Shown here: in pieces, positions 2,671 to 55,566 of the stretch | How positions within the stretch are numbered: the stretch's first letter is position 1 | Layout: each line of letters begins with the position of its first letter | Position numbers and translations under genes: made by a program | The notes under the pieces: model-generated | The model's database searches: none | What the model saw: only the letters and a program-made list of their open reading frames with translations | What the model was told of the DNA's origin: nothing | Assembly: GCA_963814835.1 (NCBI GenBank) | Contig: CAWFEG010000004.1 | Location: 43,510 to 107,509, forward strand | DNA: 64,000 nucleotides | Direction: 5' to 3' | DNA from: an uncultured Alphaproteobacteria bacterium | Lineage (GTDB): Bacteria > Pseudomonadota > Alphaproteobacteria > Rhodobacterales > Rhodobacteraceae

Positions 2671-2707
2671 CGCCATTGTCGCCCGGACCGATGGCGCGAC
2701 ACGGCTC
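2671..2707 (-). repeat. type-1 palindromic mini-insertion (37 nt)
   Basis: rc = GAGCCGTGTCGCGCCATCGGTCCGGGCGACAATGGCG. Removing exactly these 37 nt joins GAVSS to VVVSRARAAQVKVGWDA in one frame. Confidence 0.8.
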
Positions 2708-2932
2708 GTTGTCGTCAGCCGCGCGCGGGCAGCACAGGTGAAGGTCGGCTGGGACGCCCGGTGCGTCCGCAACCCTGCCGACGAGGACATTGTCCGCCCG
2801 ATCCTGGACGGGACCGTCATCGGGACCCGGCCGGACAGGAAGGCCGTGAACATCTCGGTGCTGGCCGCCATCGGCGTGCGCCGCGACGGTCAGAAGGTGC
2901 TGCTCTCGATCCGCAACATGGGCGGCGAGAGC

Positions 2933-3000
2933 ACGTCGTCGACCTCGCAGCGCCCCATCGGGGCCCCTGCGTCCGGCTGATGCCGGACCGGTCTCGACCA
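2933..3000. repeat. probable second, longer palindromic insertion in the IS256 transposase
   Basis: 68 nt lie between GGES and WRRFLDD where homologues have about 3 codons. Contains ACGTCGTCGAC and CCGGACCGGTCTCGACCATGGCG, which resemble type-2 and type-1 motifs. Boundaries uncertain. Confidence 0.4.
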
Positions 3001-3911
3001 TGGCGCCGGTTCCTCGACGATCCCGATGCGCGAGGTCTGACGCGGCCCGAGTTCGGGATCCTGGACGGCGCCCCGGGCCTGGAAGCCGCGCTCGTGACCC
3101 TGCGGGGCGAGGAGCCGCCGATCCAGCGCTGCACGGTCCACAAGCATCGCACCCTGCTCGCCCATGCGCCCGAGCACCTGCATGACGAGCCGACCGAGGC
3201 CTGCCGGGACATGATCTGCGCCGGGACGAAGGCCGAGGTCGGGCAGCACCGCCGGGCCTTCCTTCGGACATGGCGGCTGAAATGCAAGGCGGTGGCCGAC
3301 AGCCCGGAAGAAGCCGGGGACCTGCTGTTCGCCTTCACGCGGCCCGATCCCTCGCAATGGAAATCGGCCCGGACGACGAACGCGATCGGGCGGCTGAACG
3401 AGGAATTCCGGCGCCGCATCGAGACCCAGACCGTCCTGCCCGATGCCGGGACCGCGCCCATGCCGTTCCGGGCGCTGCCCGCGTCCGGCCGGATCGTCAT
3501 GCGAAAGATCGACGGATGGGAAACGCTCGACCAACCCATCGCTGCCGAAACCGTCGACCGCGCTGCCTGAAGCAGCCAACCATCATCCGCCCGGAGAACA
3601 CGCTCGGCAATTCCCACCACATCCGCGACACCACCGCGCGCCGAGGCCATGCGGTCAGCCCAGGCGGTCGTCCATCGCTGGGTCCGGTACTTCGGGGCGG
3701 AGGCCGCGCTTCGATATGACGTCGGGGCGGACGACATTCCGGCCGATCGATCGGTCGACTGAATCTCCCCGTTCCTAGTCGTCGAAGAGGTCTTTGGAGG
3801 GCGGGTTGAGGACATTCCGGCATTCGCCCGGAACGTATGAGCCCTAGGCGGAAGGCGATGTTCAGACGCCCTTGCGGGGCAGGTCTACCCCGGCGCATGA
3901 AAGGGCTGAGC

Positions 3912-4604
3912 CTAGACCGACATCATCTGGATAATGCGATCACGGTCGGCCTCGTCCTTCCGGGCGGCATGGGTGACCCGGCCGCGATCCATCACGATGA
4001 TGCGGTCGGCCAGACCGAATGCGAAGGCGAAATACTGTTCGACGAGCACAACGGCGAGGCCCTTTGCCTTCAGATGCGCGATCACCTGCCCGATCTGTTG
4101 AATGATGTTCGGCTGGATGCCCTCCGTCGGCTCGTCGAGGAGCAGGATGCGGGGCCGGATTACCAAGGCGCGTCCGATGGCGAGCTGTTGCTGCTGCCCG
4201 CCGGAAAGATCGCCGCCACGCCGGAGTGCCATCTCGCGTAGGACCGGAAAAAGCTCGTAGATCTCCTCGGGCACGCACCGTTCGGCCTTGGGCAGGCTGG
4301 CGAAGCCGGTCTCCAGGTTCTCCCGCACGGTGAGGAGCGGAAAAATGTCACGCCCCTGAGGCACGTAGCCGACGCCGCGGCGGGCCAGCGCGTGGGCCGG
4401 AACGCGTCCGAGCGCCTCGCCATCCAGGGCGAGCGTACCACCCGACCGCGGGTGGACGCCGGCGATGGCTTTCAGAAGGCTCGTCTTGCCGACACCGTTC
4501 GTGCCCATGACGCAGGTGATCTGACCGGCCTCGGCGTCGAGATCGACGCCGTGGAGGATCTGGCTCTGGCCGTAATGGAGCGTCAGTCCGCGCGCTTCAA
4601 TCAT
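3912..4604 (-). CDS. urtE: urea ABC transporter ATP-binding protein UrtE
   Basis: MIEARGLTLHYGQSQILHGVDLD..., Walker A GTNGVGKT, signature LSGGQQQQL. Last gene of the urtABCDE order. Confidence 0.9.
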   Translation of the reverse strand: MIEARGLTLHYGQSQILHGVDLDAEAGQITCVMGTNGVGKTSLLKAIAGVHPRSGGTLALDGEALGRVPAHALARRGVGYVPQGRDIFPLLTVRENLETGFASLPKAERCVPEEIYELFPVLREMALRRGGDLSGGQQQQLAIGRALVIRPRILLLDEPTEGIQPNIIQQIGQVIAHLKAKGLAVVLVEQYFAFAFGLADRIIVMDRGRVTHAARKDEADRDRIIQMMSV

Positions 4605-4606
4605 GT

Positions 4607-5347
4607 TCAGCGTCCCAGGTAGACGTCGATGACGCGGGGGTTCCGCGTGACGTGATCGAGGCTTCCCTCGGCCAGCACCGATCCTTCGTGCAGCACCGTC
4701 ACCCGGCATTCGAGCCGCCGCACGAAATCCATGTCGTGCTCGACCACGACCACGGCCCGGGTCTTCGCCGCCTGCTTGAGAAGGTCGGTCGTGTGCTCGC
4801 GCTCTTCGAGCGTCATGCCGGCGGCGGGTTCGTCGACCAGCAGGAGGCGCGGCTCCTGCGCGAGGAGCATTCCGATCTCGAGCCATTGCTTCTGTCCGTG
4901 GCTGAGCTCGCCGGCCCTGCGCGCAAGGTGCCTGCCAAGGCCGATTTCCGAGGCGAGGCCCCGCACCCGCTCCATGTCCGCCGGGCTTCGTCGGTAGAAG
5001 AGCGCCGAAACGGGCCCTCGGCGGTTCCTAAGCGCCATGACGAGGTTCTCCTCCACGCTCTGATCCTCGAAGACGGTGGGTCGCTGGAATTTCCGCCCGA
5101 TCCCTTCGCGTGCGATCCGCGCCTCGGACATGGAGACCAGCGAGGTTCCGAGATCGCCCCACCTGACGGTGCCCGTATCGGGCCGCGTCTTGCCGGTCAC
5201 GATGTCCATGAACGTCGTCTTGCCTGCCCCATTCGGGCCGATCACGGCCCGCAATTCGGACTTGCCGATGGAGAAGGACAGGTTGTTGATGGCACGGAAC
5301 CCGTCGAAGGTCTTCGATACGCCCGAAACTTCGAGAAGGCTGCTCAT
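4607..5347 (-). CDS. urtD: urea ABC transporter ATP-binding protein UrtD
   Basis: MSSLLEVSGVSKTFDGFRAINNLSF..., Walker A GPNGAGKTT, LSHGQKQWLEIGM. ATGA overlap with urtC. Confidence 0.9.
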   Translation of the reverse strand: MSSLLEVSGVSKTFDGFRAINNLSFSIGKSELRAVIGPNGAGKTTFMDIVTGKTRPDTGTVRWGDLGTSLVSMSEARIAREGIGRKFQRPTVFEDQSVEENLVMALRNRRGPVSALFYRRSPADMERVRGLASEIGLGRHLARRAGELSHGQKQWLEIGMLLAQEPRLLLVDEPAAGMTLEEREHTTDLLKQAAKTRAVVVVEHDMDFVRRLECRVTVLHEGSVLAEGSLDHVTRNPRVIDVYLGR

Positions 5348-6567
5348 CGGGCCTCCTCCGCGTCGCGCACCGCACCCTCGTCGGGACCGACCGCATCGCC
5401 GTGGCGGTCGGGATTGCGCCGGGCGAGGGCGAGATCGATCAGGCCGGAAAGCCCCTTCGGCGCGAAGATCGTGACCAGCACGAAGCCCAGGCCCAGCATG
5501 ACCTGCCACCAGGACACCCAGGCGATGGTATATCCCAGCACGGTCACGTCGGGCGCGCCGCCACCCGAAAACCAGTTCGACAGCAGGCTGACGCTCGCGG
5601 CCCCCAGGACCGCGCCCCAGATCCGGCCACGCCCACCAATGGCGACCCAGACGGCCAGGTAGATCGAGGCGATGGGCGCAAGCTCGGCCGGATTGATGAT
5701 ACCGGCCTGCGGGTAATAGAGCGAGCCCGCGATCCCCGCCATCACGGCCGACACGGTGAAGACGAAGAGCTTGTAGGACTCCACCGGGTAGCCGAGGAAG
5801 CGCACCCGCGCCTCGTCGTCACGCACGCCGCGGATGACCGAGCCGAACTTGCCCGCCACGATCCAGGCGGCGAGGACGTAGCCCAGTGCCAGTGCGAGCG
5901 CCGATCCCCACACGAACCAGAGCGAGATCCAGGCCTGCGACACGCCGCCGGCATGGGGGATGTTCTGTAGCCCCGACAGGCCGTTGTTGCCGCGCAACCC
6001 GCTTTCGTTCTGAAAGAGGTAGAGCGACAGCGCGAGCGTCATCGCCTGGGTCAGTATGGACAGATACACCCCCGTCACGCGGCTGCGGAACGCGAGCCAG
6101 CCGAAGACCAGCGCGAGCAGTCCCGGCACCAGCACCACGAGCGCGAGCTGCACCGGCAGCGACCCCGCAAAGGTCCAGATCGCCGGCAGCTCGGACGCCC
6201 CGACCACGCCGAAGATCTGCGCCGCGATGGCGTCCTGCACCTCGGCGGTGGTCGGCGGCAACGGCTGGGCCAGCAGCGACGGCTCGACGATCAGGCGCGT
6301 GCGCTCGTACATCAGCCACATGCCGATCATGTAGCCGCCGAGCCCGAAGAACGCGAAATGACCCAGGCTCAGGATCCCCGCATAGCCCCAGACCAGGTCC
6401 ATCGCGATCGCCACGAGGCAGAGGCAGAGCGTCTGGCCCAGGATCTTTATGAAGGAGGTGCTGAGCGCCCCGGTCCCCGTGGCCTCCGAGAGGACCGTCA
6501 CGCCGAGGGTGAAGAGCGCGAGCAGCGACAGGAAGACGAGTACGTGGGGATGGCGCCTGAGGAACAT
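5344..6567 (-). CDS. urtC: urea ABC transporter permease UrtC
   Basis: 407-aa LivM-type polytopic permease in the urt operon context. Confidence 0.85.
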   Translation of the reverse strand: MFLRRHPHVLVFLSLLALFTLGVTVLSEATGTGALSTSFIKILGQTLCLCLVAIAMDLVWGYAGILSLGHFAFFGLGGYMIGMWLMYERTRLIVEPSLLAQPLPPTTAEVQDAIAAQIFGVVGASELPAIWTFAGSLPVQLALVVLVPGLLALVFGWLAFRSRVTGVYLSILTQAMTLALSLYLFQNESGLRGNNGLSGLQNIPHAGGVSQAWISLWFVWGSALALALGYVLAAWIVAGKFGSVIRGVRDDEARVRFLGYPVESYKLFVFTVSAVMAGIAGSLYYPQAGIINPAELAPIASIYLAVWVAIGGRGRIWGAVLGAASVSLLSNWFSGGGAPDVTVLGYTIAWVSWWQVMLGLGFVLVTIFAPKGLSGLIDLALARRNPDRHGDAVGPDEGAVRDAEEAR

Positions 6568-6570
6568 GGC

Positions 6571-9877: not shown

Positions 9878-11333
9878 GAAGACCCTCCTGAGGATATCCG
9901 CCAAGTCTTCGATGGTGGTGCTGGCGGCACGCGCCATTGAAGGACGCACCGACTTGATCCCGAACGGCTCCCGCAGAACAGATCTTGGCCCTCCGGAATC
10001 TCCGCTTTGATGGCGCTCGATCATATTTTGGTCCGATCGCCCGCCGGGTAGGCGTTCGGCGGATCAGGGGATATCGAGCGCGACACGCCCCCCGACTCGG
10101 GCGCGGTGCCGCCGCTCCCAGCGATGCGGGGTACTCCTCGAACCCAACGGCGATTTTCGAGAGGCGCCGCTGCTCCGGCCGACCGGCGGCGGATGACCGG
10201 TCAGGACCGTGAACGGCACCCCGATCGTGCCACTGCAACGCAGTTTTGTGCCACATCGAGGACGCTCGGGAATCTCGCACAGCCGTCGTCGATCTCGGTC
10301 CAGATCAGCCCGCGTGAGACTGGGTCTTTCCCTGATTACGCAAAGTTCAGGGCACATGCATCCACGCCACCGACCGCGTTTCGGTCGTCAGCCCGACCCC
10401 CGCGGCATCTCAACCGGGAACGGAATCACCAGCACATCCGGGCCCTGGTGCATGGCGACATCGACCGACCCCGCGATCACGACAGCGCAGCGGTGAAGCC
10501 GGAGGAGATCCGGCCATAGATCCATGAGGTGCGAAGCGCGCAGCATAGGGCATGACCCTAGATGTTCGATCCCACGATTTGACGGTGTGACCCTTTCGAG
10601 GGAAGGGAAGGACGCATCCTGGGACAGGTTCGTCACGGGGGAGCGCCACGACCGCGCCCGCCGTCAGGGCTGCAAGACGGCGATCGCAAGCTTCGCTCGC
10701 GCCGCCGATCCAGGAGCCGGGCGTCACCCCGAAGACGGTCGCGAAGTGGCGCCAGCGGGCGACCGTCGAGGATCCGGAGACCGGACCGAAAGGAGCCGCG
10801 CGCGACGGTGCCGCCCGAGGCGGGGGAGGCGATGATCGCCACAGGCTGCTGCCCCCGGAGGACCGCCTCCATGCCCTTCAGCCCCCGATTGCGCCTCTGA
10901 GGCGGTCGGCACGGCCCCGTTGCCTGCGGCGATGCGCGATGTCGCGCCACCGGTCCGGGCGAGGATGACGAATGCCTCTCCCGCCTGCGGGGCATCGAGG
11001 ACGACGAGCCGAAACGGCGGCGGTTCGAGCGCCGCCCGATCGGCTTCCTTCACATCGACATCGCCGAGATGCAGACCGCCGCGGGCAGGCTCCATCCCGT
11101 CGTCGGCATCGACCGAACCCGCAAGTCCGCCGTCACCCGGTCCGCGGAGAAGGCGGACAGGCGCACCGCCCGGGAGGTCCCGCGGCATGTGCCCGCGGCC
11201 TGCGCCGCCCGGCGGCTCGTCCTGCCGGGTTCGCGCCATCCTGACCGACAGCGGCATCCGGTGCGCCGGGCCGCCGCGGAACCGGAACGCGACCCTCTCC
11301 CGGCCGATGCGCTTCGACATGATCCGCGACGGC

Positions 11334-11369
11334 GAGCCATGGTCCGCCATCGGTCCGGGGACGATGGCG
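11334..11369 (+). repeat. type-1 palindromic mini-insertion (36 nt, in frame)
   Basis: GAGCCATGGTCCGCCATCGGTCCGGGGACGATGGCG inserted between FDMIRDG and RGIGHRLTKP of the IS481 transposase. Confidence 0.8.
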
Positions 11370-11592
11370 CGCGGGATCGGGCACCGCCTGACGAAGCCGC
11401 CGCCCCCTGGACCGACGGTCAGGTCGAACGGATGGACCGCACGATCAGGGAGGAGGGGGCACAGCCGATCCGGGGGCTCGGCGGCGGCCGACCGTGAAAC
11501 GCTTCCCCTGCGACAGCCAGGATCGGCGGCGCACCCGGCTCGGCGACTTCATGGCAGCCTGCACCTTCGCATCTCGGCTCGAGACCCTCGTC

Positions 11593-11629
11593 GACCCGTG
11601 TCGCCCGGACCGATGGCGCACAATGGTCG
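11593..11629 (-). repeat. type-1 palindromic mini-insertion (37 nt)
   Basis: rc = CGACCATTGTGCGCCATCGGTCCGGGCGACACGGGTC. Removal joins RLETLV to PLTPCDCSRKIPTSEPDRF in frame. Confidence 0.75.
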
Positions 11630-12199
11630 CCCCTCACGCCCTGTGACTGCAGCCGCAAGATCCCGACCTCGGAGCCGGATCGATTCATCCGCGACCCGAT
11701 CCACCAAATGCCGGGACGGAACAGCTGGGCCCCGCGCCCGGCAGCCATGAGGCGCGCCTATGGCAAGCTTCGTGCATCATCCACGGCCGGCTTCCGGCCT
11801 CCGCACCGCCTGAGCCGCCGCCGTAGCCGGGTCCCGGCTTCACCCGGGTCGCCCCATCCCGGCCCGGTCGCCAGGCCCAGCCCTGAAGAGAGGAAAGCCG
11901 GTCTTTTTTCTGGTATGATCGGTTCTGGGGAAGAGGTGGACACCTTCCGCCCGGATCCTGGCCGATGGATCGGCCCGCGAGAGAGATCGCGGCCGAGGCC
12001 GTGCCTGTCGAGCAGGCACCACAGGGCGCGCGAAGACGCCCGACCCATCGCGACATGCCAGACCGGAGAGGAGGTGATTTCTTTGATCGACTGGACCACG
12101 CGCAGGGCGGAAGCCTGGGCGCTACTGAGGAAGGGCGGCCTCTCCGCCAAGATCGCCCGCACCTTCCTCACCCAGCACGGAACCGTCTGAAACGGCTCC

Positions 12200-13087: not shown

Positions 13088-13240
13088 GTGGACGGGAGCA
13101 GCGTCGGCGATGCGTCCATGCTGCCTGAACGGCTCAGCCAGATCCCCGCGGATGTGGAGATCGGCACGGTCACCGCGGATGGTGCCTGCGACACGCGCCA
13201 GTGCCACGACGCCGTCGCGCACCGAGGCGCCCATGCGTTC

Positions 13241-13273
13241 GGGCATTCTCTCGGACCAGTGGCGTTCATGCCC
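13241..13273 (-). repeat. type-1 palindromic mini-insertion (about 33-36 nt, in frame)
   Basis: GGGCATTCTCTCGGACCAGTGGCGTTCATGCCC between RGAHA and LPPHKNA. Copy B has the empty site (GDHAVIPPRRN). Confidence 0.75.
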
Positions 13274-14185
13274 TCACTACCGCCGCACAAGAACGCCAGC
13301 ACGTGGAAGCCGTCGACTGCGGGCGCCATCGCCCGAAACGCGGCTCTACGCGCATCGAAGGACCCCGGTCGCGCGATCTGGCGAAAGTGGCGCGGATACC
13401 ACCGCCGAAGTCGCGCCGTGACGACGAGGCATTGCGCGAAGCTGCCGGGGCGGAGCCTCGTGGCACGCGACTTCGATCGCCAGGTCGCCGAACCCCGGGC
13501 CCGCGCCGCCGTGCTCGACGGCTGCACCGCGCTCCGCATCCCGATCGTGGAGCCGGCAGGACAGGTGCGCCTGGGAAAAGGGGAAGTCCGGACTTCACGC
13601 GCATTGCGCAACAGGGCCACCGCATGGGGCTTTGTTGCACGGACCTGTACCGGGCTTCGCTCTGGCTGGTCAGCGGGAGAGCCGGAGGGCATGATGCGAC
13701 CTGCTCCGACCCGCTACCGGACCCTGAACAGGACCGCTTGCAATGCCGCACTGCGTGAGCCGGGCTCACTGACGCTCTGGTTCGACCCGGAGATGACGTG
13801 GGATGCGGCACCGACCGGCAGGCGGGGCGGCCTGCAGCGACGAGGCGATTCGGGCGTGCCTTACGGTCAAGGTCCTGTCCGGGCTGCCGCTTCGTCAAAC
13901 GACCGTTCGGCAAGCCTCACCGTCCAGAGCCTGTTGCGGTTGGCGGCGCTGGACTGGACGGTACCGGATTACAGTACGTTGTGTCGGCGACAGCGGACCT
14001 TGGCGGTCAGACTGCCCTACCGGGGATCGAAGGGGCCGCTGCATCTGCTGGTGGACAGCACCGGGATCACAGTCCGCGGCGAGGGTGCTTGGCATGCCCG
14101 CAAGCATGGTGGCGCTGGCCGGCGCGTTCGTCGGAAGGTCCACCTGGGGATCGACGAAGCGCCGATGGAGGTCCGGGCGGTCGAG

Positions 14186-14234: not shown

Positions 14235-14408
14235 GTGGACAAGAGCCAGTTTGGCGATGCGCCCGTGGTTCCGGACCTGATCGGTCAGATCCCCATGGCC
14301 GAATCGATCGGCTCGGTCACGGCAGACGGCGCCTACGATACCCGCCGATGCCACGATGCGATCGCCGATCGCGGCGACCATGCCGTCATTCCGCCCCGCC
14401 GGAATGAT

Positions 14409-14446
14409 GAGCCATGTCGCGCCAACGGTCTCAGCGACAATGGCGA
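14409..14446 (+). repeat. type-1 palindromic mini-insertion (38 nt)
   Basis: GAGCCATGTCGCGCCAACGGTCTCAGCGACAATGGCGA. Removal joins IPPRRND to MPWQPDTTGATTRNEA. Copy A has the empty site (PPHKNASTWKP). Confidence 0.8.
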
Positions 14447-15488
14447 ATGCCATGGCAGCCGGACACCACCGGCGCCACAACTCGAAACGAAGCCGGGCGG
14501 GCGTCGAAATATCTGGGCCGATCCCTCTGGCGGCGTCTGACCGGATACCACCGCCGGAGCCGCATCGAGACGAAGATGCATGGCATGAAACTATTGGGCC
14601 AGCGCCTGATGGCGCGTGATTTCGATCGACAGGTTGCCGAACTCCAGATCCGCATCGCCGTGCTCGACCGCTATACCGCACTCGGCACCTCCGTCACTAA
14701 ACCCGCAGGATAAGCCTGTCCGGAGAAAGAGGCAGTCCGTCCAGCAGCCGGGCCATGCAACAATGCCGGGACGCCGCGCGGGAGAGGAGTTCACGATCTT
14801 CAAGAACGGCGGCGGCACGCTGAAGCGAAGCGATTACAGAAAGGAGCCGTTTGCAGGAGAACGTGAAATCCTGCGCCGGGCCGGGAACCTCCCCGCCAGC
14901 CGCGGCGAATGACCCTTCCGGGCCCGCCCTGCTTATCCCTGCATCCCTGCCACTCGCCCGGTTTTGCGCCGCCTTGCGGCCGGTTCTGTCACTGCCGGTG
15001 ACAACGAGATCCCGGTCTATCCTCGTCACCGCCCCGGAAGAATGGTTCAGTTTGACGCCCGCAGAAGTCCCGTGGTCGGGAAACGTGATCGAGTCAGGCC
15101 AAACCGTCGGATCAGGCTGCGCGACGGCTTTCCTCCGGGCGGGATACGACACGTCTGGAAGGCTTCTGGTCCGCATAACTCGCGTTCAGTGCGGCGATCT
15201 CGTGCGGGAGCCTGCCAAGCAGGAAACGGCGCTTCTTGCCTTGAGCCTCCGGGGCGTCGAACCAGGAAGAACCGGTTCGCGCATAAATTCCGAAATAGCC
15301 AAGCATGGGATCTCTCCACTGAGTAAGTTCTCAGTATCGATGTGCGCCCCTGGCGGTCACGCCACAACGCAGGCTTGGGGGAAGCCGTCCTGCATCTGGC
15401 GCATGGCGGGGCAGAACCGATCGAACCCGGTGTTCGCACGCGCGGGCGCTTCAGCGGGTCCGATGGGGAGATCCGTCGGGCCGCGCTC

Positions 15489-18419: not shown

Positions 18420-19578
18420 TGGCCTGCCCCTGTCGGGCGGTCCGGTTTCAGCCTTGGTGCAGGACGGGTCTCGGCGCCAAGGCGGTTGCCTCGGACGCGG
18501 TCGGCTGTCCGGTGTGTGACGGCCAGTGGACGGCCTCCGCTGGCGGCCGGTAGCCCGGCGACGAATGGGGTCTGACGGGATTGGAGTGGACCCGCCATGC
18601 CTCGATCACGGCGCGGGCCTCGGCCATCGAAGGGAAGATCTCCCCGTTCAGGTGATCGTATAGGATCACCGTCGCGAAGCTTGGAGTTGAAGCTCTCGCA
18701 GGAGCCGTTCTCCCAGGGACTGCCCGGCTCGATGAAGGCCGTCTTCGCGCCCACGGCGGCGATCCAGTCCCTCACCGCCCTGGCGATGGGCTCATTCGGG
18801 CGTCGCCCTCATCATTGTCCGGGCGGACGTGGCCGGGCCCACCCCGTGAGGCATGAACAGATCGGTCAGGACATCGACCACGGCGGTCGCGTTCCGCGTC
18901 CGGTCGATCCGGATCGCCAGGCACTCCGTGGTGAACTCGTCGACGATGTTCCGCATCCTGGACTTCCTTCCGTCCCGTGCCCGGCTCTCGACGACATCGC
19001 AGGACCGGACGCGGTTCGGGCGCTCAGGGCGCAGGCGGAGGCGGGACCCGTCATCGATCCGGAGCCGCCCCTTCCCGGGTTGCTTCCGCGGCACCGTCGG
19101 CTTGGTCGGGGGACACGCCCCACTGGGGCCTTTCCCGATCCCCCTCAGTCCCGCCGCCACTCGCCATCGTCCTCGAACCGGTGGCGGACAGGGGCTCGTC
19201 GCTCCCCGCGCTTCACGATCACGGCCCCGCCGGCATCGCGCAGCATGGCCGCGATCCGACGGTAGCCGCAGCGCCCGTATCGGGACGCGAGCGCGACGAT
19301 GTCCGCGGTCAGCGCCTCCTCGTCGGCCCGTCCGCGCGGCCTCTTCCGACGGGCGACCGATCCGACGCGAAGCCCGGCGGCGGGCGGGGCTGGGACGTTG
19401 CGCTGGTGCGGACCTTCGGATCCCGACGCGGCCTCCCGGAGGATCAGCTTCTCGAGCGTCAGGTCGCAGACGGCCTTGCGCAGCCGTTCTTCTCCTTCTC
19501 GAGCTGCTTCGGCCGCTTCACCTGGTCGGTCTTCAGACCGCCGACCTCCTTGCGCCACCGGTCACAGGTGAACCGGGT

Positions 19579-19615
19579 CGGCATGGCACTCGGACCGATG
19601 GCGTGCTCATGCCTC
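19579..19615 (-). repeat. type-1 palindromic mini-insertion (37 nt) in orfA of IS3 copy D
   Basis: rc = GAGGCATGAGCACGCCATCGGTCCGAGTGCCATGCCG. Copy C has the empty site (IGVTQFTYYRWRKE). Confidence 0.8.
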
Positions 19616-19630
19616 ACCACCGATGGACCG

Positions 19631-21354: not shown

Positions 21355-21525
21355 GCACAGTCGTCTCGAACGGAACGATGCACCGAGAGGCTTAAGTTCG
21401 GGATAATCGGTGCCTGGTGCTTCCTGCGGCCAAGCATGCCGGCGGGGTTGCTGAACTGGCCCCCGTTTCGACCGGACACTTGGGCATAGCCATGGAGGCT
21501 TGGGCATATGCCTGAACACGTGCTC

Positions 21526-21869
21526 ATGTCCGAGATCGAGATCATCACCGATGGCGGCCGGCGCCGCCGCTGGTCCGCGGCCGAGAAGCTGCGGATCGTG
21601 GAAGAAACCCTGGACGAGCGGGAGAGCATCTCGGTGGTCGCGCGGCGCAATGGCGTGGCTCCGAACCTCCTCTATCGTTGGCGCAGTCTGATGCTGGAGG
21701 GAGGGAGCGTGGCGGTGACCGGCGACGACGAGGTGACCGGGTCGAGCCTGCGAGACGGGCCGTCCGGCAGATGGAGGACCGCATCCGCGAGTTCGAACGC
21801 CAGCTTGGGCGCAAGACGCTTGAGGTGGAGATCCTCAAGGAGGCGCTGGACAAGTCACGGGCAAAATAA
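21526..21869 (+). pseudogene. IS3 type II orfA (HTH protein), reading frame changes near 21736
   Basis: MSEIEIITDGGRRRRWSAAEKLRIVEETLDERESISVVARRNGVAPNLLYRWR... continues as ...VEPARRAVRQMEDRIREFERQLGRKTLEVEILKEALDKSRAK in the -1 frame. Copy 2 has the same break. Confidence 0.6.
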
Positions 21870-21910
21870 CCGACGTTGCTCGTGCAGTCGCCGCTGAAGG
21901 GCGGTTCCCG

Positions 21911-22744
21911 ATGGCGGCCGTGGCCCAGACGCTCGGGATGTCGCGCTCGAACCTGCATGACCGGCTGAGCGGAAGGACCAAGCCGCGGCGGCGCTACTAC
22001 AAAGCGCGAGACGCGGCGGTGCTGCCGTTGATCACGGCGCTCGTGGCGGCGCGACCGACCTGCGGCTACCGGCGGATCACGGCGCTCCTGAACCGCCAGC
22101 TGCGGGCGCAGGGGCTGGCGCCGGTGAACCACAAGCGCGTCTACCGGGTCATGCAGACCAACAACCTGCTTCTCGCGCGGAGCAGGACCGAGCGGCCGGC
22201 GCGCACCCACGACGGCAAGGCCCTCGTCATGCGCTCGAACCTGGGATGGTGCAGCGACGGCTTCGAGTTCACGTGCTGGAACGGCGACATCGTCCGCGGC
22301 GCCTTCGTCATCGACGCCCACGACCGGGAGATCATCGCCTGGCGCGCCGTGGCGAACGCCGGCATCAGCGGATCCGATATCCGCGACATGATGCTCGAGG
22401 CGGTGGAGACGCGGTTCAGCGCGCACCGCGCCCCGCATCCGGTCGAGATGCTCAGCGACAACGGCTCGCCCTACACCGCCCGCGACACGCGCATCTTCGC
22501 CAGCCAGCTCGGCCTGAGGTCCCGCTTCACGCCGGTCAAGAGCCCGGAGAGCAACGGCATCTCGGAAGCCTTCGAAAACACGCTCAAGCGTGACTGCGTG
22601 CGCGTCACGCCGTTGCCGGACGCTCAGGTCGTCCTCGACCTCGTCAGCGGGCGGATCGAGGACTACAACGACAACCACCCGAACTCAGGGCTGAAGTTGC
22701 GCTCGCCCCGCGAGTTCATCGCAGCTCAAACCGCAACCGCCTGA
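21911..22744 (+). CDS. IS3 type II orfB (DDE integrase-core transposase)
   Basis: 277-aa ORF with an rve core (WCSDGFEFTCWNGDIVRGAFVIDAHDREIIAW...LSDNGSPYTA...SPESNGISEAFENTLKRD). Probably expressed by a -1 shift at GCAAAATAA (about 21861-21869). Confidence 0.8.
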   Translation: MAAVAQTLGMSRSNLHDRLSGRTKPRRRYYKARDAAVLPLITALVAARPTCGYRRITALLNRQLRAQGLAPVNHKRVYRVMQTNNLLLARSRTERPARTHDGKALVMRSNLGWCSDGFEFTCWNGDIVRGAFVIDAHDREIIAWRAVANAGISGSDIRDMMLEAVETRFSAHRAPHPVEMLSDNGSPYTARDTRIFASQLGLRSRFTPVKSPESNGISEAFENTLKRDCVRVTPLPDAQVVLDLVSGRIEDYNDNHPNSGLKLRSPREFIAAQTATA

Positions 22745-23163
22745 GTGTCCGGCGAAACGGGGGCAATATCAGCTCGCCGATTCAGCGGCTGATGCCGGCC
22801 GCTCGGGGAAACGCAACCTGGACGCTTCCGGAAAGTTCGCTCTGAACGGTTTCGAGATGTTCCGGCCGGTGCTGGAGGGTGCCCTCGGGCGGCCGGCCGC
22901 CCTTCGACCCCGTGCTGAAGGTCCGCCTGCTCGTCTTGCAATCGCTGCCCGGGCTTTCGCTGGAGCAGACGGAGTACCTTGTCCGGGACCGGCTGTCGTG
23001 GATGCGGTTCTGCCAGCTCGGCCGTGAAGACCGGGTGCCGGACGCGAACACGCTGTGGGACTTCCGCGAGGCTCTGATCGCAGCGAACGCGTTGGAGGAC
23101 CTCTTCGATCGGCTCGACCGGGCGATCACGGCGGCGGGCTACCTGCCGCGGGGCGGCCAGAAC

Positions 23164-23199
23164 GAGCCAATGTCCGCCATTGGTCCGAGGGCAATGGCG
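23164..23199 (+). repeat. type-1 palindromic mini-insertion (36 nt, in frame)
   Basis: GAGCCAATGTCCGCCATTGGTCCGAGGGCAATGGCG between GYLPRGGQN and NDASLVAAPRQRNT. Confidence 0.8.
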
Positions 23200-23454
23200 A
23201 ACGATGCGAGCCTGGTCGCCGCGCCCCGGCAGCGGAACACCGACGGGGAGAAGGCGACGATCAGGGAGCGCAGGTCCGCCGCGAAGATCTGGCCGGACAA
23301 GCTGGCGAAGGCGCGCCAGAAGGACGTCGATGGGCGCTGGACGGTCGAATACTCGAAGGCAACGGTCCGGACCGACGACACGAAGCCGGTCGATCTCGCG
23401 ATCCCGGTCTAGGGCTACAAGTCCCACATCTCGATCGACCGGATGCATGGGCTC

Positions 23455-23491
23455 GCCATTGTCCCCGGACCAATGGCGGACAATGGCTGCG
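23455..23491 (-). repeat. type-1 palindromic mini-insertion (37 nt), opposite orientation in the same gene
   Basis: GCCATTGTCCCCGGACCAATGGCGGACAATGGCTGCG. Removal joins SIDRMHGL to LRRQAVTDAARHDG in frame. Confidence 0.8.
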
Positions 23492-23925
23492 CTCCGCCGC
23501 CAGGCCGTCACCGATGCCGCCCGGCATGATGGGAGGCGGATGCGGGAGGGACTGATCGCCCGGTCCAACACGGCCCGCTTGGCCTGGGCGGACAGCGCCT
23601 GCCGCTCGGCCGAGAACGAGGCCTGGCTGGAGGCGCAGGGCATGGTCAGCCGCATCCATCGTCGCAAGCCGAGGGGCCGCCCGATGCCGAAGCCAACCCG
23701 CCGCGCCACCGCCGCGAAGTCCGCGCTGCGCTCGAAGGTCGAACACGTCTTCGCCCACCAGAAGGCCCGCATGGGGATGACCATCCGCACCATCGGGCTG
23801 GCATGCGCGGGGGGGCGATCACGCTGGCCAACATGGCCTTCACCATGACCCGATGGCGGTGGCTCGACAGCCGATCTGCACCAGCCTGACCGGGATCGGC
23901 CGGCGATCCGGCGTCATCAGGCGCC

Positions 23926-28285: not shown

Positions 28286-29618
28286 GCTCGTCTGCTTCCC
28301 AGAACGCGGGACGGCATGGCATATTCCCCTGCAAACCTGCCTTCGGCAAGATTCATCGAGACGACAAGAAAGTCCGCGGTCCGGTCCTTGCTCCTTGGGT
28401 GGCCTGCCCCTGTCGGGTGGTCCGGTTTCAGCCTTGGTGCAGGACGGGCCTCGGCGCCAAGGCGGTTGCCTCGGACGCGGTCGGCTGTCCGGTGTGTGAC
28501 GGCCAGTGGACGGCCTCCGCTGGCGGCCGGTAGCCCGGCGACGAATGGGGTCTGACGGGATTGGAGTGGACCCGCCATGCCTCGATCACGGCGCGGGCCT
28601 CGGCCATCGAAGGGAAGATCTCCCCGTTCAGGTGATCGTATAGGATCACCGTCGCGAAGCTTGGAGTTGAAGCTCTCGCAGGAGCCGTTCTCCCAGGGAC
28701 TGCCCGGCTCGATGAAGGCCGTCTTCGCGCCCACGGCGGCGATCCAGTCCCTCACCGCCCTGGCGATGGACTCATTCGGGCGTCGCCCTCATCATTGTCC
28801 GGGCGGACGTGGCCGGGCCCACCCCGTGAGGCATGAACAGATCGGTCAGGACATCGACCACGGCGGTCGCGTTCCGCGTCCGGTCGATCCGGATCGCCAG
28901 GCACTCCGTGGTGAACTCGTCGACGATGTTCCGCATCCTGGACTTCCTTCCGTCCCGTGCCCGGCTCTCCACGACATCGCAGGACCGGACGCGGTTCGGG
29001 CGCTCAGGGCGCAGGCGGAGGCGGGACCCGTCATCGAGCCGGAGCCGGCCCCTTCCCGGGTTGCTTCCGCGGCACCGTCAGCTTGGTCGGGGGACACGCC
29101 CCACTGGGGCCTTTCCCGATCCCCCTCAGTCCCGCCGCCACTCGCCATCGTCCTCGAACCGGTGGCGGACAGGGGCTCGTCGCTCCCCGCGCTTCACGTT
29201 CACGGCCCCGCCGGCATCGCGCAGCATGGCCGCGATCCGACGGTAGCCGCAGCGCCCGTATCGGGACGCGAGCGCGACGATGTCCGCGGTCAGCGCCTCC
29301 TCGTCGGCCCGTCCGCGCGGCCTCTTCCGATGGGTGGAGCGATGCTGGCCGAGCACGCGGCAGGCGAAGCGCTCCGAGACCTGGAACTTCCGCCGGGCAT
29401 GATCGACGCAAGCCCGGCGGCGGGCGGGGCTGGGACGTTGCGCTGGTGCGGACCTTCGGATCCCGACGCGGCCTCCCGGAGGATCAGCTTCTCGAGCGTC
29501 AGGTCGCAGACGGCCTTGCGCAGCCGTTCTTCTCCTTCTCGAGCTGCTTCGGCCGCTTCACCTGGTCGGTCTTCAGACCCCCGACCTCCTTGCGCCACCG
29601 GTCACAGGTGAACCGGGT

Positions 29619-29655
29619 CGGCATGGCACTCGGACCGATGGCGTGCTCATGCCTC
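29619..29655 (-). repeat. type-1 palindromic mini-insertion (37 nt) in orfA of IS3 copy E
   Basis: Same sequence and position as 19579-19615. Removal gives IGGTRFTCDRWRKE, colinear with IGVTQFTYYRWRKE of copy C. Confidence 0.8.
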
Positions 29656-29670
29656 ACCCCCGATGGACCG

Positions 29671-39367: not shown

Positions 39368-39790
39368 TCAGTCCCACGGCGCGGGGCCGTCGGCCACGAC
39401 CTGCCCGAAGATGGTCTCGCGATGCCAGGCCAGGTTCGCCGGATGCGGCCGATCGCGAGGATCCTCGGGCAAGTGCAGCTCACCGGAGGGCGAGATCAGC
39501 CGGTCCACGACCTCTCCCGGGACCTTGTTGTGGGAGACGAGGGTCGTGCGCGCGTCATCGGCCACCGAGAGCAGGCCACGCTCGAACATCCAGTGCAGCG
39601 TCCCGACAGCGCCAGTCCGTTGCGCACGGAATCGCTGCCCTCCCGCTCGACCGGCCGGATATGCGCGGCCTGGACCTCCGGGCGGCCGCCGCCGTTCCGC
39701 AGCCGCAGGCCGGGCGCAGCAGGGGCGGCGGACGTGGCCTCTCCACCCCGCCGGAACGGTCAACTGACGGTCGCGCGAAGTGACGAGAAA
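39368..39790 (-). pseudogene. HNH endonuclease (restriction-endonuclease-like HNH) remnant, frameshifted and N-terminally truncated
   Basis: AAHIRPVEREGSDSVRNGLALSG then TLHWMFERGLLSVADDARTTLVSHNKVPGEVVDRLISPSGELHLPEDPRDRPHPANLAWHRETIF. Confidence 0.65.
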
Positions 39791-40320
39791 CGATGGCGAA
39801 TGCTCACGGCGCCTTCGAACAGCCCGAACAGCGCTCGCTTGACCCGGCGCGCGTTCGGGCCGGCGAGGCAGACCGCCGCGATCGGCGCCTCGGCCGTCTT
39901 CGTCAGCCGCCGGTAGCGCGGCAGGGCTTTCGACCGCCACTCGGTGGTCTGGCCGTGGCCATCGGCGCCCCGCGCCCAACTGCGTTCCCGCACGGTCTCG
40001 GTGCCGAAGGTCCCGGCGAACTGCCGCTCTCGGTGCCCGTGGCGGTATCCCCTGGCATCGCCGCCCCCCTCGCCATCGCGCCCGTGGCGGAAGCGGCCGA
40101 GACAGGCGGCCAGCTCCTCCTCGAACATCGCCTCGATGGTGGCGCGCACGTTCGCCCGAAGCCGATACTCGATCGGATCGTGGCTCGCCTCCTCGGGCGG
40201 CGGCGAAAAGACAGCGCTCTCGGTAATCTCGGTCATGGCGCAATCTCCCTGGCGGTTGGCGCCGCCGGTTGGGGGGGGTCACATCACCCGGAGATCACGC
40301 CGCCTTCGAATTTCCACCAC
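39791..40320 (-). mobile_element. IS256-family fragment (left end plus the first ~150 codons), copy 2 of the element at 2149-3620
   Basis: MTEITESAVFSPPPEEASHDPIEYRLRANV...FEGAVS, near-identical to copy 1. Homology stops within the first ~9 nt of the type-1 insertion (CGATGGCGA at 39791-39799). Confidence 0.85.
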
Positions 40321-42276: not shown

Positions 42277-43173
42277 GAGCGCCTAGCAGAACCGGTGGAT
42301 CTGCTTGATGCAGATGAGGACTGCGGCGAGGGTGCTGAAGGCTTTGTGGAGGTCCGCGCGACGCTCGTAGCGAGTGGCGAGGCGTCGAAACCAGGCGAGT
42401 CAGGCGAAGGTTCGTTCCACGACCCAGCGATGGCGCCCGAGATGGGCGGAACTCTCGATGCGCTTGCGGGCGATGCGAGGCATGATGTTCCGGGCGCGGC
42501 ACGCCATGCGACATCGCCGGCTGTCGTAGGCCTTGTCGGCGTGCAGCTTGTCTGGGCGCTTTCGGGGCCGCCCCCGACCGCCGGGGCGCACGCCCGGCAC
42601 GGCATCGAGGACGGGCGCCAGCGCCATGCTGTCATGACGGTTCGCTCCGGTGGGGATCAGGCCGAGCGGTGTGCGTTCGCCATGGATCTCGAACCGATGC
42701 GACCCATGGCTCACCGGTCGGTGACGATGTGGCGCTTCGTCCCCGGCTTGCCCCTGTCCGTCGGGCTTGGCCCCGTTGCGGCACCCCCCCTTTCGGGCCC
42801 GATCGAAGCGCTGTCGATCGAGGCGCGCGACCGGTCGATCTCCCCTGCCTGATGCAGCCGTTCCAGAAGCACCCGGTGCAGGTGGCCCCGCACCTCGGCT
42901 TGCTGCCAGTCCCGCATCCTGCGCCAGCACGTCATTCCGGAACAGCCGAACGCCTCCCGGGGCAACATCTCCCAGGGAATGCCGGATCTCAGCACGAACA
43001 CGATGCCCCGCAGCGCATCGCGATCGCTGCATCGGGTCCGGCCGCCTCTCGGCTTCGCGGGCTCCTGGGGGAGAAGCGGCGCGATCGCCGCCCAGAGATC
43101 GTCGGATACAAGCTCGCCTCGTGCCATGCCGGAACAACGCGAGCGGCCCCAAGAGAGGTTCTGTTAGGCGCTC
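42277..43173 (-). mobile_element. nested IS5-family element (897 bp) with a target duplication
   Basis: Inverted repeats GAGCGCCTAGCAGAACC / GGTTCTGTTAGGCGCTC flanked by TAA (or CTAAG) on both sides, inside the IS256-type gene. The transposase is broken by the 38-nt insertion and a TGG-to-TGA change. Confidence 0.85.
42676..42713 (-). repeat. type-1 palindromic mini-insertion (38 nt)
   Basis: rc = TGAGCCATGGGTCGCATCGGTTCGAGATCCATGGCGAA. Its first TGA terminates orfA. Removal joins KRHIVTDR to RTPLGLIPTGANRHDSM in frame. Confidence 0.8.
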
Positions 43174-43532
43174 TAAGACCACCTGCGCACCGCCGACCCG
43201 ATCGAAAGCGTCTCCGCCACGGTCAGGCTTCGCACCGTCCGGACCAAGAGCGCGCTGTAGCAGAAGATCGCTGACCTCGTGGTCTAGATGCTCATCCAGG
43301 CGGCCTCTAATGGATGGCTCCCCCTAAAAGGCTCCAGTCAGTTGGCAATGGTCGTCGAGGGCTTCAGAATCACCGACGGCACCGCCGAGATCGGCGACGC
43401 CAGCCGCGTTACTTGGTCAGGGCGCGTCACCCAAATTCAGCCATTAGCTCTCTCAGCCTGTCCCCGCATCGTTCGTCGGCTCACGCGGCGCCACTGCCGC
43501 CACGATCTGCCGCACCATCTTTCATGCGCTGC

Positions 43533-52015: not shown

Positions 52016-52139
52016 TCCGCAGGCGGCGCCTACGCCGCATTCTCTTCCGGTCTCGCCCTCCGCGCGGCGTCTGATCTATGCCTTCGTCGTAGGTCGGTAG
52101 AATGCGATTTCTGACGGGTTTACGGGACGCTACGAGGTT

Positions 52140-52570: not shown

Positions 52571-52958
52571 TATCGTTCGGGGTCGTCAGAACCGCCTGCT
52601 CGTTCGGGTGTTTCATTCTACGTCGTCCCAATCCCTGCGCCACGCCGTCACGGCGACACAGGGGATCTAAGATCAACAAGAAAACGGGCCGAAAAGAAGA
52701 ACGGGCGAAAATTCTGCGCGAGCCGGCCGCGTCCAGATCGGACGGGGCAGCCGGCAGCTACGGCGCCCTCGCCGGCAGCCAGATTCCGAGGCTGCGGCAG
52801 AGATGGTGAACGGCGCCGTACCCAGAGCGGACATCCGCCACGGGCACCTTGGACTGCAGTTGTGCGCACGAAGCCGATGGGGTGGATGGCTCCTGCTCCC
52901 CCGGCGTCGCGATGCGCCATGCTGCAGGTGTCATGATCTGCATGTGGAGGAGCCGCCC

Positions 52959-53889
52959 ATGAGAGTTTCCACCATCGGTCTGGACCTGGCCAAGAGCATT
53001 TTTCAGGTTCATGGCGTTACCGATCAAGGCGAGGTCGCGTTCAACCGACCGCTCCGCCGGGCGCGGGAACTCTCGAAGCTCGGTCACGAGGTGCGGCTCA
53101 TCCCGCCTCTGTACGTCAAGCCATACGTCAAGCGGGGCAAGTCCGACGCGGTCGACGCCGAGGCGCGTCTCGCGAGGCGGTGACGCGCCCGACCATGCGG
53201 TTCGTCGAGATCAAGACCGGGGACCGGCAGGCGCTGCTCAGCCTGCACCGGATGCGCGATCTGGCGGTCCGACAGAGCACGCAGCTGGTCAACATGCTCC
53301 GTGGCCTGCTGGCCGACTGCGGGATTACCATCCCCAAGGGTATCGGCAGGGCGCTCGGATACGCCAGGGATATGACCGAAGGTGCCTCGCCGGAGATCCC
53401 GGAGATCGCCCGGGTCTTGTGCCGCCAATTGAAGGCCCTGAATACCTGGATCGGCTGGTACGAGGCGCGACTGAAGATCGAGACCCGGGCAAACCCGCAG
53501 GTCAGTCTGCTCCAGACGATCCCCGGGGTGGGCCCAATCAGGCCTCGGCGATCGCGGCCACGGTCGGCAGCGGACGTCTGCTCCGAAGCGGCCGCGACTT
53601 CGCGGCGTGGCCGGGCCTGACTCCCCTGAACCGATCCAGCGGTGGCAAGGAGCGCCTCGGCCGGATCTCGAAGATGGGCGACCGATACCTGCGACAATTG
53701 CTGGTCGTGGGCATGACTTCACGGGTCCGGCAGGTCCGCAACCATTCCGACCGCGCTGACCCGTGGCTCGCGCGCTTGCTCGACCGCAAACCAGCGCGTC
53801 TCGCCACGGTTGCCATGGCGAACAAGACCGCCCGTATCGTCTGGGCCGTGCTGACGAGAAACCGCCCCTACGCCCAGACTGCGGCCTGA
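52959..53889 (+). pseudogene. IS110-family transposase (internal N-terminal deletion and frameshifts)
   Basis: MRVSTIGLDLAKSIFQVHGVTDQGEVAFNRPLRRA|RELSKLGHEVRLIPPLYVKPYVKRGKSDAVDAEA..., LQTIPGVGP, GKERLGRISKMGDRYLRQLLVVGMTS..., ATVAMANKTARIVWAVLT. Confidence 0.8.
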
Positions 53890-54329
53890 GAAGGGCGGCA
53901 TTCGAGATAGCAGACCAACGATGTGATGGGTGCACCCTCGGCCGCAGCGTTCAGGATACCCCGCCGAATGGCAAGGGCTCAATGGCCCGCAGGGCCAACA
54001 GGGAGTCGATCCGCGGGCCCCATCAGGGCCAGCGGTCAGATGCACCGCGCAAACAGGCCGGACATACGACCGCTTCTGAAAGGTGCGCGCCAGACCATTT
54101 TCGGCTTGCTATGCAGGAGCCATCCACACAGGCCATTCGATGCGATTGACACGAAAATCCGTTTCTACAGGGCATGCCGTAAGCGGATGCTTATTCTGAA
54201 ACCTATTCTAGCCGCAGCCATCGGCGTTCGATACTCCTTGCCGATCTATTGTTTATTGGCGCGTTTTCTGGGTATGTAGACAAGCTGCGGACGATTACGG
54301 ATTTCATGGGATGTGAATGATCGCTTTGA

Positions 54330-54620
54330 TGCACTGCTAGATACGGCGATCCGCTCATTGAGATGATGGAACCCATCTACGAGGGTCCGCAACGTCGCTC
54401 GTGCCGTCTTGGGCAAGGTGCCTTCGGATACCTCGACCAGCTCGATCAGGCGACGTGCGCTCCACGTCGAATAGGGAACGACTTTTCCGAACTCGGTCAG
54501 GTGCCTCCGCAATGCTTCCATTGCTGTTGTACAGGATGAAATTCTCGCAGGAACCTGAAGCACCTATCCGCAGCGTAGCTTGCGCCTCAGCACCGTTCTG
54601 CCAGAAGCGTCCGCCCCGTG
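54330..54620 (-). mobile_element. fragment of a different IS110-family transposase, cut by IS3 copy C
   Basis: ALRRHLTEFGKVVPYSTWSARRLIELVEVSEGTLPKTARATLRTLVDGFHHLNERIA resembles the central IS110 region. Visibly lower GC. Confidence 0.45.
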
Positions 54621-54775
54621 TGGTCTGCCCCCTGAAAAGTGGTCCTCCCTGAAGTAGGCTTTTGAGCCGGATGGAGGACGAAGGAATGGTGCAGAAGAAA
54701 CACAAGCCGGAGGAGATCGTCGCGAAGCTACGGCAGGTCGACGTGCTGGTATCGCAGGGCCGTCCGGTGGCCGAG

Positions 54776-54800
54776 GGTCGACGTATACGTCGAGCGGTCC
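54776..54800 (+). repeat. type-2 palindromic block in orfA of IS3 copy C
   Basis: GGTCGACGTATACGTCGAGCGGTCC: 25 nt where related OrfA proteins have 4 codons, so a net +13 nt. A 17/18 palindrome lies at 54777-54794. Confidence 0.7.
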
Positions 54801-55525
54801 ATCGGTGTGACGCAGTTCACCTACTACCGGTGGCGCAAGGAGTTCGGAGGGCTGAAGACCGACCAGGTGAAGCGGCTGAAGGAGCTCGAGAAGGAGAACG
54901 AGCGGCTTCGCAAGGCGGTCTCCGATCTGACGCTTGAGAAGCTCATCCTGCGAGAGGCTGCCTCGGGAAACTACTGAGCCCCGCCCGCCGTCGAGCCTGC
55001 ATCGACCATGTCAGGCAGAAGTTCCGGGTCTCGGAACGGCTTGCCTGTCGCGTGCTCGGCCAGCATCGCTCCACCCAGCGGAAGGCACCGCGTGGGCGGG
55101 CCGACGAGGAGGCACTGACCGCGGACATCGTCGCGCGGGCGCGCCAGTATGGGCGCTACGGCTATCGCCGGATCGCGGCCCTTCTCCGAGATGCCGGGTG
55201 GACGGTGAACGTGAAACGGGTCGAACGGATCTGGCGACGGGAGGGGCTGAAGGTGCCACAGAAGCAACCCGGGAAAGGCAGGCTCTGGCTGAACGACGGG
55301 TCATGCATCCGCCTGCGGCCGGGGCGTCCGAACCACGTCTGGTCCTACGATTTCGTGGAGAGCCGGACTCACGACGGAAGGACGTTCCGGATGCTCAATG
55401 TCATCGACGAGTTCACGCGGGAATGCCTGGCCATTCGCGTCGACAGGAAGCTGAACTCGACCGCGGTGATCGACGTGCTGACCGATCTGTTCATCCTTCG
55501 AGGCGTGCCCGGCCATGTTCGTTCG

Positions 55526-55566
55526 GAGTTGCCCATCGCGGCGCCATCGGTCCGAGCCCGATGGGC
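55526..55566 (+). repeat. type-1 palindromic mini-insertion (41-nt variant) in orfB of IS3 copy C
   Basis: GAGTTGCCCATCGCGGCGCCATCGGTCCGAGCCCGATGGGC between GHVRS and DGPEFIARAVRDW. Arms GCCCATCG/CGATGGGC. Confidence 0.8.

Follow-up and report, generated by a model that had tools for sequence, protein, structure and literature searches.

What is a palindrome of some forty nucleotides doing inside the transposase genes of insertion sequences (ISs) that belong to unrelated families? The question is raised by a stretch of 64,000 nt (hereafter the window) from an uncultured alphaproteobacterium of the Rhodobacteraceae (assembly GCA_963814835.1, contig CAWFEG010000004.1, positions 43,510 to 107,509), in which a preliminary description had pointed to eleven copies and had entertained several meanings for them, from a mobile ‘nano-element’ to a device that inactivates ISs, or even a recoding signal. 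All eleven copies of this hairpin mini-element are there. The reading we favour, as probable rather than secure, is that they belong to a family of 41-45 bp non-autonomous palindromic elements native to the Rhodobacterales, which hitch-hike in mobile hosts and are moved by a putative enzyme acting in trans.

The window has a G+C content of 67%, its nearest plasmid matches are from Rhodobacterales, and the ENA metagenome assembly ERZ25039549 has an identical IS3 copy on one of its contigs. The core of the element, GCCATYGGTCCGRG, occurs in it eight times exactly as against an expectation of 0.03, and eight or more were found in none of 100 shuffles. The three copies with diverged cores (13241, 14409 and 42676) were picked up by a scan for loop plus stem, which gave no further convincing copy in the window, the shuffled windows yielding 0-5 weak matches. 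The coordinates first given were right to within 2-4 nt. Since IS-related DNA makes up only about 25% of the window, the residence of all eleven copies (ten of them independent) in IS genes is far from what chance would provide.

Loop-anchored alignment of the window copies with about 100 copies from other genomes gives the anatomy of the unit, which is 41-45 nt long and has the layout 5'-NN GA [stem 9-11 nt] GCCAYYGGTCCGA [stem'] GA N'N'-3', where GCCAYYGGTCCGA is a conserved 13-nt loop. Two base pairs close the unit at its outer end; inward of them the two opposing GA dinucleotides form a tandem G.A/A.G mismatch in a Y-GA-R context, followed by a covarying stem of 9-11 bp. The flanks follow the pattern R-N-Y-GA..GA-R-N-G, with outer dinucleotides that are complementary (GT/AC, GC/GC, AT/AT or TC/GG). 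The hairpin of the preliminary description, with arms that differ from copy to copy and stay self-complementary, is thus borne out by the alignment; its length was underestimated, as GA plus two complementary bases have to be added on each side. Among 94 unique units there are 76 distinct left arms as against 13 loops, 55 of the loops being identical, and pairing at stem positions 4-7 is seen in 90-96% of units, with 3-4 pair types at each, compared with about 52% when partners are shuffled. A single strand of the element is predicted to fold into the expected hairpin. As far as aligned sequences can tell, hairpin and loop are under selection or maintenance, with the stems covarying. The covariance models of Rfam 15 have no match in the window, and in eight element-bearing loci they match only one tRNA.

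How does such a unit arrive? The clearest case is provided by two copies of the IS21 gene istA on different plasmids of Paracoccus liaowanqingii strain 2251, which are 99.8% identical and of which one (L124) is filled and the other (L126) empty. The filled copy reads GGCA[GCGA GCCGTTGTCC GCCATCGGTCCGA GGACAATGGC GAGC]GCGG and the empty one GGCA[CCACC]GCGG, so that 41 nt replace 5 nt for a net gain of 36 nt, with no duplication of the target. The protein changes from HYGTA[VV]PARP to HYGTA[LAIVLGPMADNGSL]PARP, and the filled gene, of 522 aa, is still annotated as intact. The same exchange of 41 nt for 5 recurs at two phage terminase sites, each of which is the other's empty site, at the end of an IS3 orfA, in an IS66 and in another IS3. 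At the replaced position, five of seven empty sites have CAYCG, which is also the 5' half of the loop; a rough estimate, made after the motif had been seen, puts the probability of this arising by chance far below 1e-6. An identical 42-nt unit is present in an unrelated IS3 of another organism (L111) and in the IS21 of P. liaowanqingii, and therefore the unit moves between IS families. At the level of sequence comparison, these cases demonstrate true insertion of a discrete 41-45-nt unit with replacement of about 5 nt and without duplication.

Two other ways of generating the flanks and arms were considered and set aside. The GA..GA flanks raised the idea that GA is a 2-nt target duplication; it is contradicted by the 99.8% identical pair and by the exact insertions of 12 or 13 amino acids. 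The net gain equals the hairpin plus 3 or the hairpin plus 4, which means that both GA dinucleotides arrive with the unit. Derivation of the arms from the target by inverted duplication was rejected on the grounds of identical units in unrelated hosts and of empty sites that have no arm. For the IS5, IS481 and IS256 hosts of the window itself, PLSDB offered no near-identical empty sites, the best matches being 62-90% identical.

Some further features of the sites deserve record. Some insertions fall on GAC AAT GGC (DNG) codons, which are arm-like, and the arm sequence GACAATGGC itself corresponds to D-N-G codons. Many sites are next to catalytic-motif codons (S/T-D-N-G, L-I-D, D-G-L-K-G and the Walker-B F-L-D-E), examples being in IS3/IS481 (L022, L063 and 55526 of the window), IS5 (L025, L037, L049 and L092), IS256 (P0003) and a terminase (L145). 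This adjacency could be coincidence, target preference or selection. Also, IS homology and the junctions of IS66/IS256 chimeras stop at or within copies of the element (39790-40320 versus 2149-2679 of the window; L025:6650-7750; L127), and the elements may be hot spots of breakage or recombination.

In one representative copy, no stop codon is present in any of the six frames, and therefore a copy that adds 36 or 39 nt just adds 12-13 residues. In-frame copies are seen in intact genes for phage terminase, capsid, gene transfer agent (GTA) tail and helicase proteins and in intact IS21, IS256, IS3 and IS66 genes; the addition is exactly 12 aa at the two terminase sites and in IS21, IS3 OrfA and IS66, and 13 aa in IS256. 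The recurrent in-frame reading, …EPLSAIGPRTMA…, is shared by terminase, capsid, IS66 and IS3 genes. Of 12 copies in long open reading frames (ORFs) that the element leaves open, eight lie in the sense orientation, their loop being translated as (S)A(I/T)GP(R); this has the look of selection for an innocuous peptide that forms a turn. In all non-IS copies of viral contigs the ORF stays open, and among these are copies in frame in GTA g15-like tail genes. In IS256 transposases of 417 aa, as compared with relatives of 404 aa, the 13 extra residues (RHCLSDQWRSNGS and variants) are the antisense reading of the element. One IS256 site, QTC|IV|HLV (L110, L276-L279), is filled in five lineages in one orientation and frame, with three arm sub-families that have compensatory changes. 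In a rough IS256 tree, filled and empty lineages are interleaved, which suggests, on the branching of these sequences, repeated acquisition at one hot spot or else short-patch conversion.

How far beyond the window does the family extend? A scan of one genome per species, with contexts assigned by clustering, Pfam and tblastn, gave at least 119 loci, nearly all of them in Rhodobacterales and spread over dozens of genera; the few others are likely transfers or binning errors, with some chance matches that have no left arm. Among the matches listed, 62 of the 89 hairpin copies in genomes are in IS genes and 27 are unassigned, almost all of the latter being a fully paired TC..GA variant. Metagenomes contributed 73 hairpin copies, comprising 55 in IS genes, one in a GTA tail gene and 17 initially unassigned, and six of ten that were later tested with Pfam proved to be in ISs too. 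The 18 on viral contigs are divided between ISs (seven), major capsid (four), terminase large subunit (three), GTA g15-like tail protein (three) and helicase (one). IS genes thus harbour 70-75% of about 160 copies in the two unbiased scans, an intergenic hairpin motif accounting for most of the remainder, and the host families are IS3 (orfA and orfB), IS5, IS21 (istA and istB), IS66, IS110, IS256, IS481, IS630, IS1182 and IS4. Both orientations relative to the host gene occur. In ordinary cellular genes the genome, metagenome and viral scans together (about 180 copies, again among the matches listed) found none. The main variant is present in 34 of the 72,556 plasmid records of PLSDB, all of them from Rhodobacterales, and with so few the family is therefore a low-copy one.

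[quoted passage not shown] What fails is the claim that the element is found, or tolerated, only inside transposase genes; there are in-frame copies in terminase, capsid, GTA tail and helicase genes, and there is an intergenic variant.

That variant, TC..GA, is nested in a common spacer motif, AAATATCCCGGGGG...GGGGCAGAGCCCCC, between genes. The motif, AAATATCCCGGGGG[x]GGGGCAGAGCCCCC, is widespread in Rhodobacterales, at L012, L042, L100 and about 20 more loci, and has a variable middle slot that is often occupied by a small GA-hairpin-GA module; the intergenic form of the element fills this slot, and the motif is without an Rfam match. Ordinary spacers, in the copies scanned and among the matches listed, lack the GA..GA form. 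Hairpin mini-insertions of different sequence were met in similar hosts: GA-GCCGG..CCGGC-GA beside the A6G slippery site of an IS3 (L121:1546-1600, P. yeei pYEE1), a second 45-nt hairpin adjoining a copy of the present element in Roseivivax halodurans (L043, about 5860-5905), and the in-frame inserts GEADQKTIRGIVFPPN and PSHGLRANHCRVT in IS256 transposases (P0001/P0074 and P0003). The GA-hairpin-GA frame may define a wider superfamily.

In the explanation that we favour, the whole unit would be placed as one piece, replacing about 5 nt that usually contain CAYCG, with a usual net gain of 36 nt. The putative enzyme would recognise a folded single strand, with the loop and the G.A base as its handle, and the same specificity would also select the CAYCG target. 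Copies in frame would be tolerated and carried by mobile hosts within and between genomes, and frame-breaking copies would persist only in dead IS copies, as they do in the window. The strong excess in mobile-element genes is real; it could reflect a preference for mobile DNA as target or substrate, or survival together with hitch-hiking, and survival bias and hitch-hiking surely contribute.

Several observations weigh against this explanation. Near-identical filled and empty sites are represented by a single pair, mobility being deduced from comparing sequences, and in diverged pairs the net insertion ranges from 35 to 39 nt. Survival and hitch-hiking leave unexplained both the absence of the GA..GA form from ordinary intergenic DNA and the presence of nearly identical units in at least five IS families. 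No Y1/IS200-like ORF was found in 1.12 Mb around the copies, a weak test confined to these neighbourhoods. Finally, between lineages at the shared IS256 site the element is 90-94% identical as against 77-83% for its flanks and 54-67% for third codon positions; this hints at host function or conversion rather than a purely selfish passenger.

Could the confinement to mobile DNA be mechanistic rather than a matter of survival? An insertion machinery that targets mobile DNA (ISs, phages and GTAs), making the element a parasite of parasites, is a possibility that we entertain tentatively. It would act, for example, on single-stranded or replicating intermediates of mobile elements, with a nicking-joining enzyme that reads the same CAYCG/loop sequence on element and target.

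A passive origin by repair or replication is doubtful. The element would then be copied by template switching between co-replicating mobile DNAs, or captured at a break as an excised hairpin, with the base of the hairpin bounding the copied segment. Much fits: there is no target duplication, the target loses about 5 nt, the net gain varies somewhat, breaks in homology and the junctions of IS chimeras coincide exactly with elements, two window copies have arms that look reciprocally chimeric, and the loop-like target could serve as microhomology. However, a passive process does not explain why, across a whole order, a 13-nt loop is conserved while stems drift, nor does it account for the constancy of the 41-for-5 rule at six sites or for the strand-specific GA..GA frame.

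That the hairpin is instead functional for its mobile hosts, as a protein-binding or regulatory site, a stimulator of frameshifting or a transcript structure, and is kept by selection on the host element, we regard as unlikely. The conservation and compensatory arm changes at the IS256 site speak for it, as do several IS3 copies that immediately follow orfA's terminal A6G slippery site and several sites that adjoin the DNG, LID, DGLKG and FLDE motifs. Yet the element occurs either way round and at many positions that have nothing in common, non-coding spacers and dead IS copies among them, close IS relatives without it show no sign of defect, and the best-preserved ISs of the window are among those that do without.

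Very unlikely, in our estimation, is a system encoded by the cell or by a competitor that recognises mobile DNA and disables it by inserting hairpins, an idea already raised in the preliminary description. The confinement of hosts to IS, phage and GTA genes in the roughly 180 copies (among the matches listed) would suit such a system, and so would the insertions beside catalytic motifs and the fact that, within the window, only degraded IS copies carry the element. Against it, the commonest outcome in intact genes is a tolerated in-frame addition of 12-13 aa, many copies being in intact, annotated and still-diversifying transposases; about a quarter of copies are intergenic; and a GTA tail gene, of a kind believed to benefit the host cell, is filled as well.

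The proposal that the inserts are removed or bypassed at the level of RNA or ribosome (a mini-intron or programmed bypass) can draw on a compact stable hairpin and on hosts that deletion of 35-38 nt would restore, but it is unnecessary and hardly credible given copies that run with or against the gene although their loop is not palindromic, in-frame copies that are read through and require no removal, frame-breaking copies in decayed IS genes with other stops and frameshifts, and the want of an Rfam match.

Returning to the window, the hosts named in the preliminary description (IS256, IS481, the IS5s including an InsH-like one, and three IS3 copies) were all confirmed by Pfam and tblastn, and the eleven copies can be followed from left to right. 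Copy 1 (2668..2709, minus strand; hairpin 2672-2705, with GA..GA flanks and an exact core) is antisense in an IS256-like transposase gene, whose Transposase_mut domain is at 2191-3567 on the plus strand. A further IS256 fragment (39790..40320, minus strand), 98% identical to 2149-2679, terminates in about 7 nt of element arm (TCGCCAT), and its breakpoint is therefore inside a former copy of the element. Copies 2 and 3 share a decayed IS481 gene (10639-11725, by tblastn). Copy 2 (11332..11372, plus strand; GCGA-hairpin-GCGC) is sense and in frame, adding the 12 codons of EPWSAIGPGTMA (RFDMIRDG[EPWSAIGPGTMA]RGIGHRLT against the IS481 reference), and copy 3 (11590..11631, minus strand) is antisense.

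Two tandem IS5 paralogues with DDE_Tnp_1_5 domains harbour the next two. Copy 4 (13237..13277, minus strand; GTGA-GGGCAT..ATGCCC-GAAC), in paralogue A, is antisense and in frame with an additional 12 codons, HA[FGHSLGPVAFMP]SLPPHKN compared with its paralogue. Copy 5 (14407..14448, plus strand; ATGA-hairpin-GAAT, with a diverged loop), in paralogue B, is sense and breaks the frame by about +38 nt, at a site eight codons from that of copy 4 and in the opposite orientation. The InsH-like IS5 gene (22888-23803, by tblastn) has both copy 7 (23162..23202, plus strand), sense and in frame with 12 added codons (GGQ[NEPMSAIGPRAM]ANDASL against an IS5 reference), and copy 8 (23451..23491, minus strand), antisense with a +37 nt frame shift. 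Copy 10 (42675..42714, minus strand; GTGA-hairpin-GAAC, with a 1-nt deletion in the loop) is sense in an IS5 (DDE_Tnp_1) gene at 42400-43182.

The three IS3-like hosts were identified by rve_3 and tblastn. In IS3-like copy A, copy 6 of the element (19576..19617, minus strand; GTGA-GGCATG..CATGCC-GACC) is sense and adds 37 nt relative to its empty site in the IS3-like copy at 54.6-55.8 kb; copy 9 (29616..29657, minus strand) is its duplicate in IS3-like copy A', which is 99% identical. Copy 11 (55526..55571, plus strand; GA-GTTGCCCATCG..CGATGGGCGAC) is sense in IS3-like copy B, at the catalytic S-D-N-G motif. Two of the IS3-like copies supply each other's empty sites. The frame-breaking copies sit in visibly decayed ISs with other stops and frameshifts.

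Copies 1 and 3 have arm irregularities that are mirror images: the left arm of one matches the other's right arm in complement, as if two arm variants had crossed over within the conserved loop. Such recombination probably fits these two copies (those first given as 2671 and 11593) better than a ‘flip-flop’ inversion of the loop, which was also considered. Loops of the ATCGGTCCG type (e.g. 11346-11359) include CGGTCCG, which we take to be the site of RsrII (Rhodobacter sphaeroides), and all loops have GGTCC, presumably an AvaII-type site.

As had been claimed, the cellular genes and the best-preserved ISs of the window are free of the element. The genes concerned are the urt operon and those for MFS transporters, an amidohydrolase, TauD, an ABC-2 transporter, glycosyltransferases and a polysaccharide exporter, together with an ORF earlier called an RND pump; the ISs are the intact IS3 copies (21449-22771 and 57462-58784) and the IS427-like and IS1182 copies. 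The two intact IS3 copies are 100% identical, inverted and 34.7 kb apart; bracketing most of the IS-rich region as they do, they are a possible composite element or inversion substrate. At the left edge (672-1118) an ORF with a resolvase domain and a YceI-like ORF adjoin the IS256-like copy, and this region looks like an accessory, plasmid-like island.

What is the element kin to? In our assessment the Rickettsia palindromic elements (RPEs) are closest in behaviour, and REP sequences closest in size and shape. RPEs are selfish palindromic repeats that are tolerated, in frame and with a recurrent peptide, in unrelated protein-coding genes (PMC10969869). The likeness lies in palindromic insertion in frame in ORFs with a conserved peptide, here the recurring (S)AIGPR. 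The differences lie in host range and clade: RPEs, of about 100-150 bp, occupy ordinary genes of metabolism in a bacterium that is obligately intracellular, whereas the present element, of 41-45 bp, is in mobile-element genes and one intergenic motif of free-living Rhodobacterales.

REPs are dispersed imperfect palindromes of 20-40 bp, a few of them intragenic, and in alphaproteobacteria the predominant ones are CGTC REPs, which have 8-9 bp stems, 4-5 nt loops and no known transposase (PMC3733652). REP families have a short loop and conserved stems; here it is the 13-nt loop that is conserved and the stems that vary. There is no GTAG or CGTC tag, the base has a tandem G.A mismatch, and GACG follows only some intergenic copies. 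While REPs are mainly extragenic and number from tens to thousands per genome, this element is low-copy with 70-75% of copies in IS genes, and the 1.12 Mb of neighbourhoods, a weak test, gave no RAYT/IS200-like match near them.

Other comparisons are more distant. MITEs were rejected for lack of target duplication and for variable arms that match no IS end, and they are usually larger (50-500 bp). CRISPR repeats were likewise rejected, as the copies are scattered, irregularly spaced and in both orientations, and attC sites because the anatomy does not fit. Cyanobacteria reportedly have small dispersed repeats that are tiny, mobile and often nested in other mobile elements; tiny size and nesting are shared, while sequence, clade and structure differ, and we know of no report of a conserved loop with covarying stems or of a 41-for-5 replacement rule. 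IS608 recognises hairpins strand-specifically and inserts without duplication at a short target related to element sequence. The present element resembles IS200/IS605 and PATEs in its strand-specific hairpin, in the absence of duplication and in a target that resembles element sequence; those, however, carry a pair of unlike subterminal hairpins and go in 3' of a target that is kept, whereas here there is one hairpin and a CAYCG-containing 5-mer is removed. Searching the published literature for the sequence of the element and for related concepts turned up no description. The element is apparently undescribed, its unusual property being confinement to mobile-element genes.

A clean, testable system is offered by Paracoccus, in which a single strain has IS21 both filled and empty and for which trap-plasmid assays already exist (PMC3281130). 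Throughout a major order of marine bacteria, transposases, terminases, capsids and GTA proteins gain 12-13 residues from the element, which reveals permissive insertion sites in the host proteins; it marks the breakpoints of IS rearrangements, and the frameshifts it makes get called pseudogenes by annotation pipelines. A mechanistic bias would make this a minimal mobile element whose home is almost exclusively other mobile elements, and would point to an unknown discrimination of mobile from chromosomal DNA or to a nicking-joining enzyme for a 41-nt hairpin. Should the element indeed be a parasite of parasites, it would represent a new and minimal class of DNA mobility, in which a single hairpin replaces five nucleotides without duplication.

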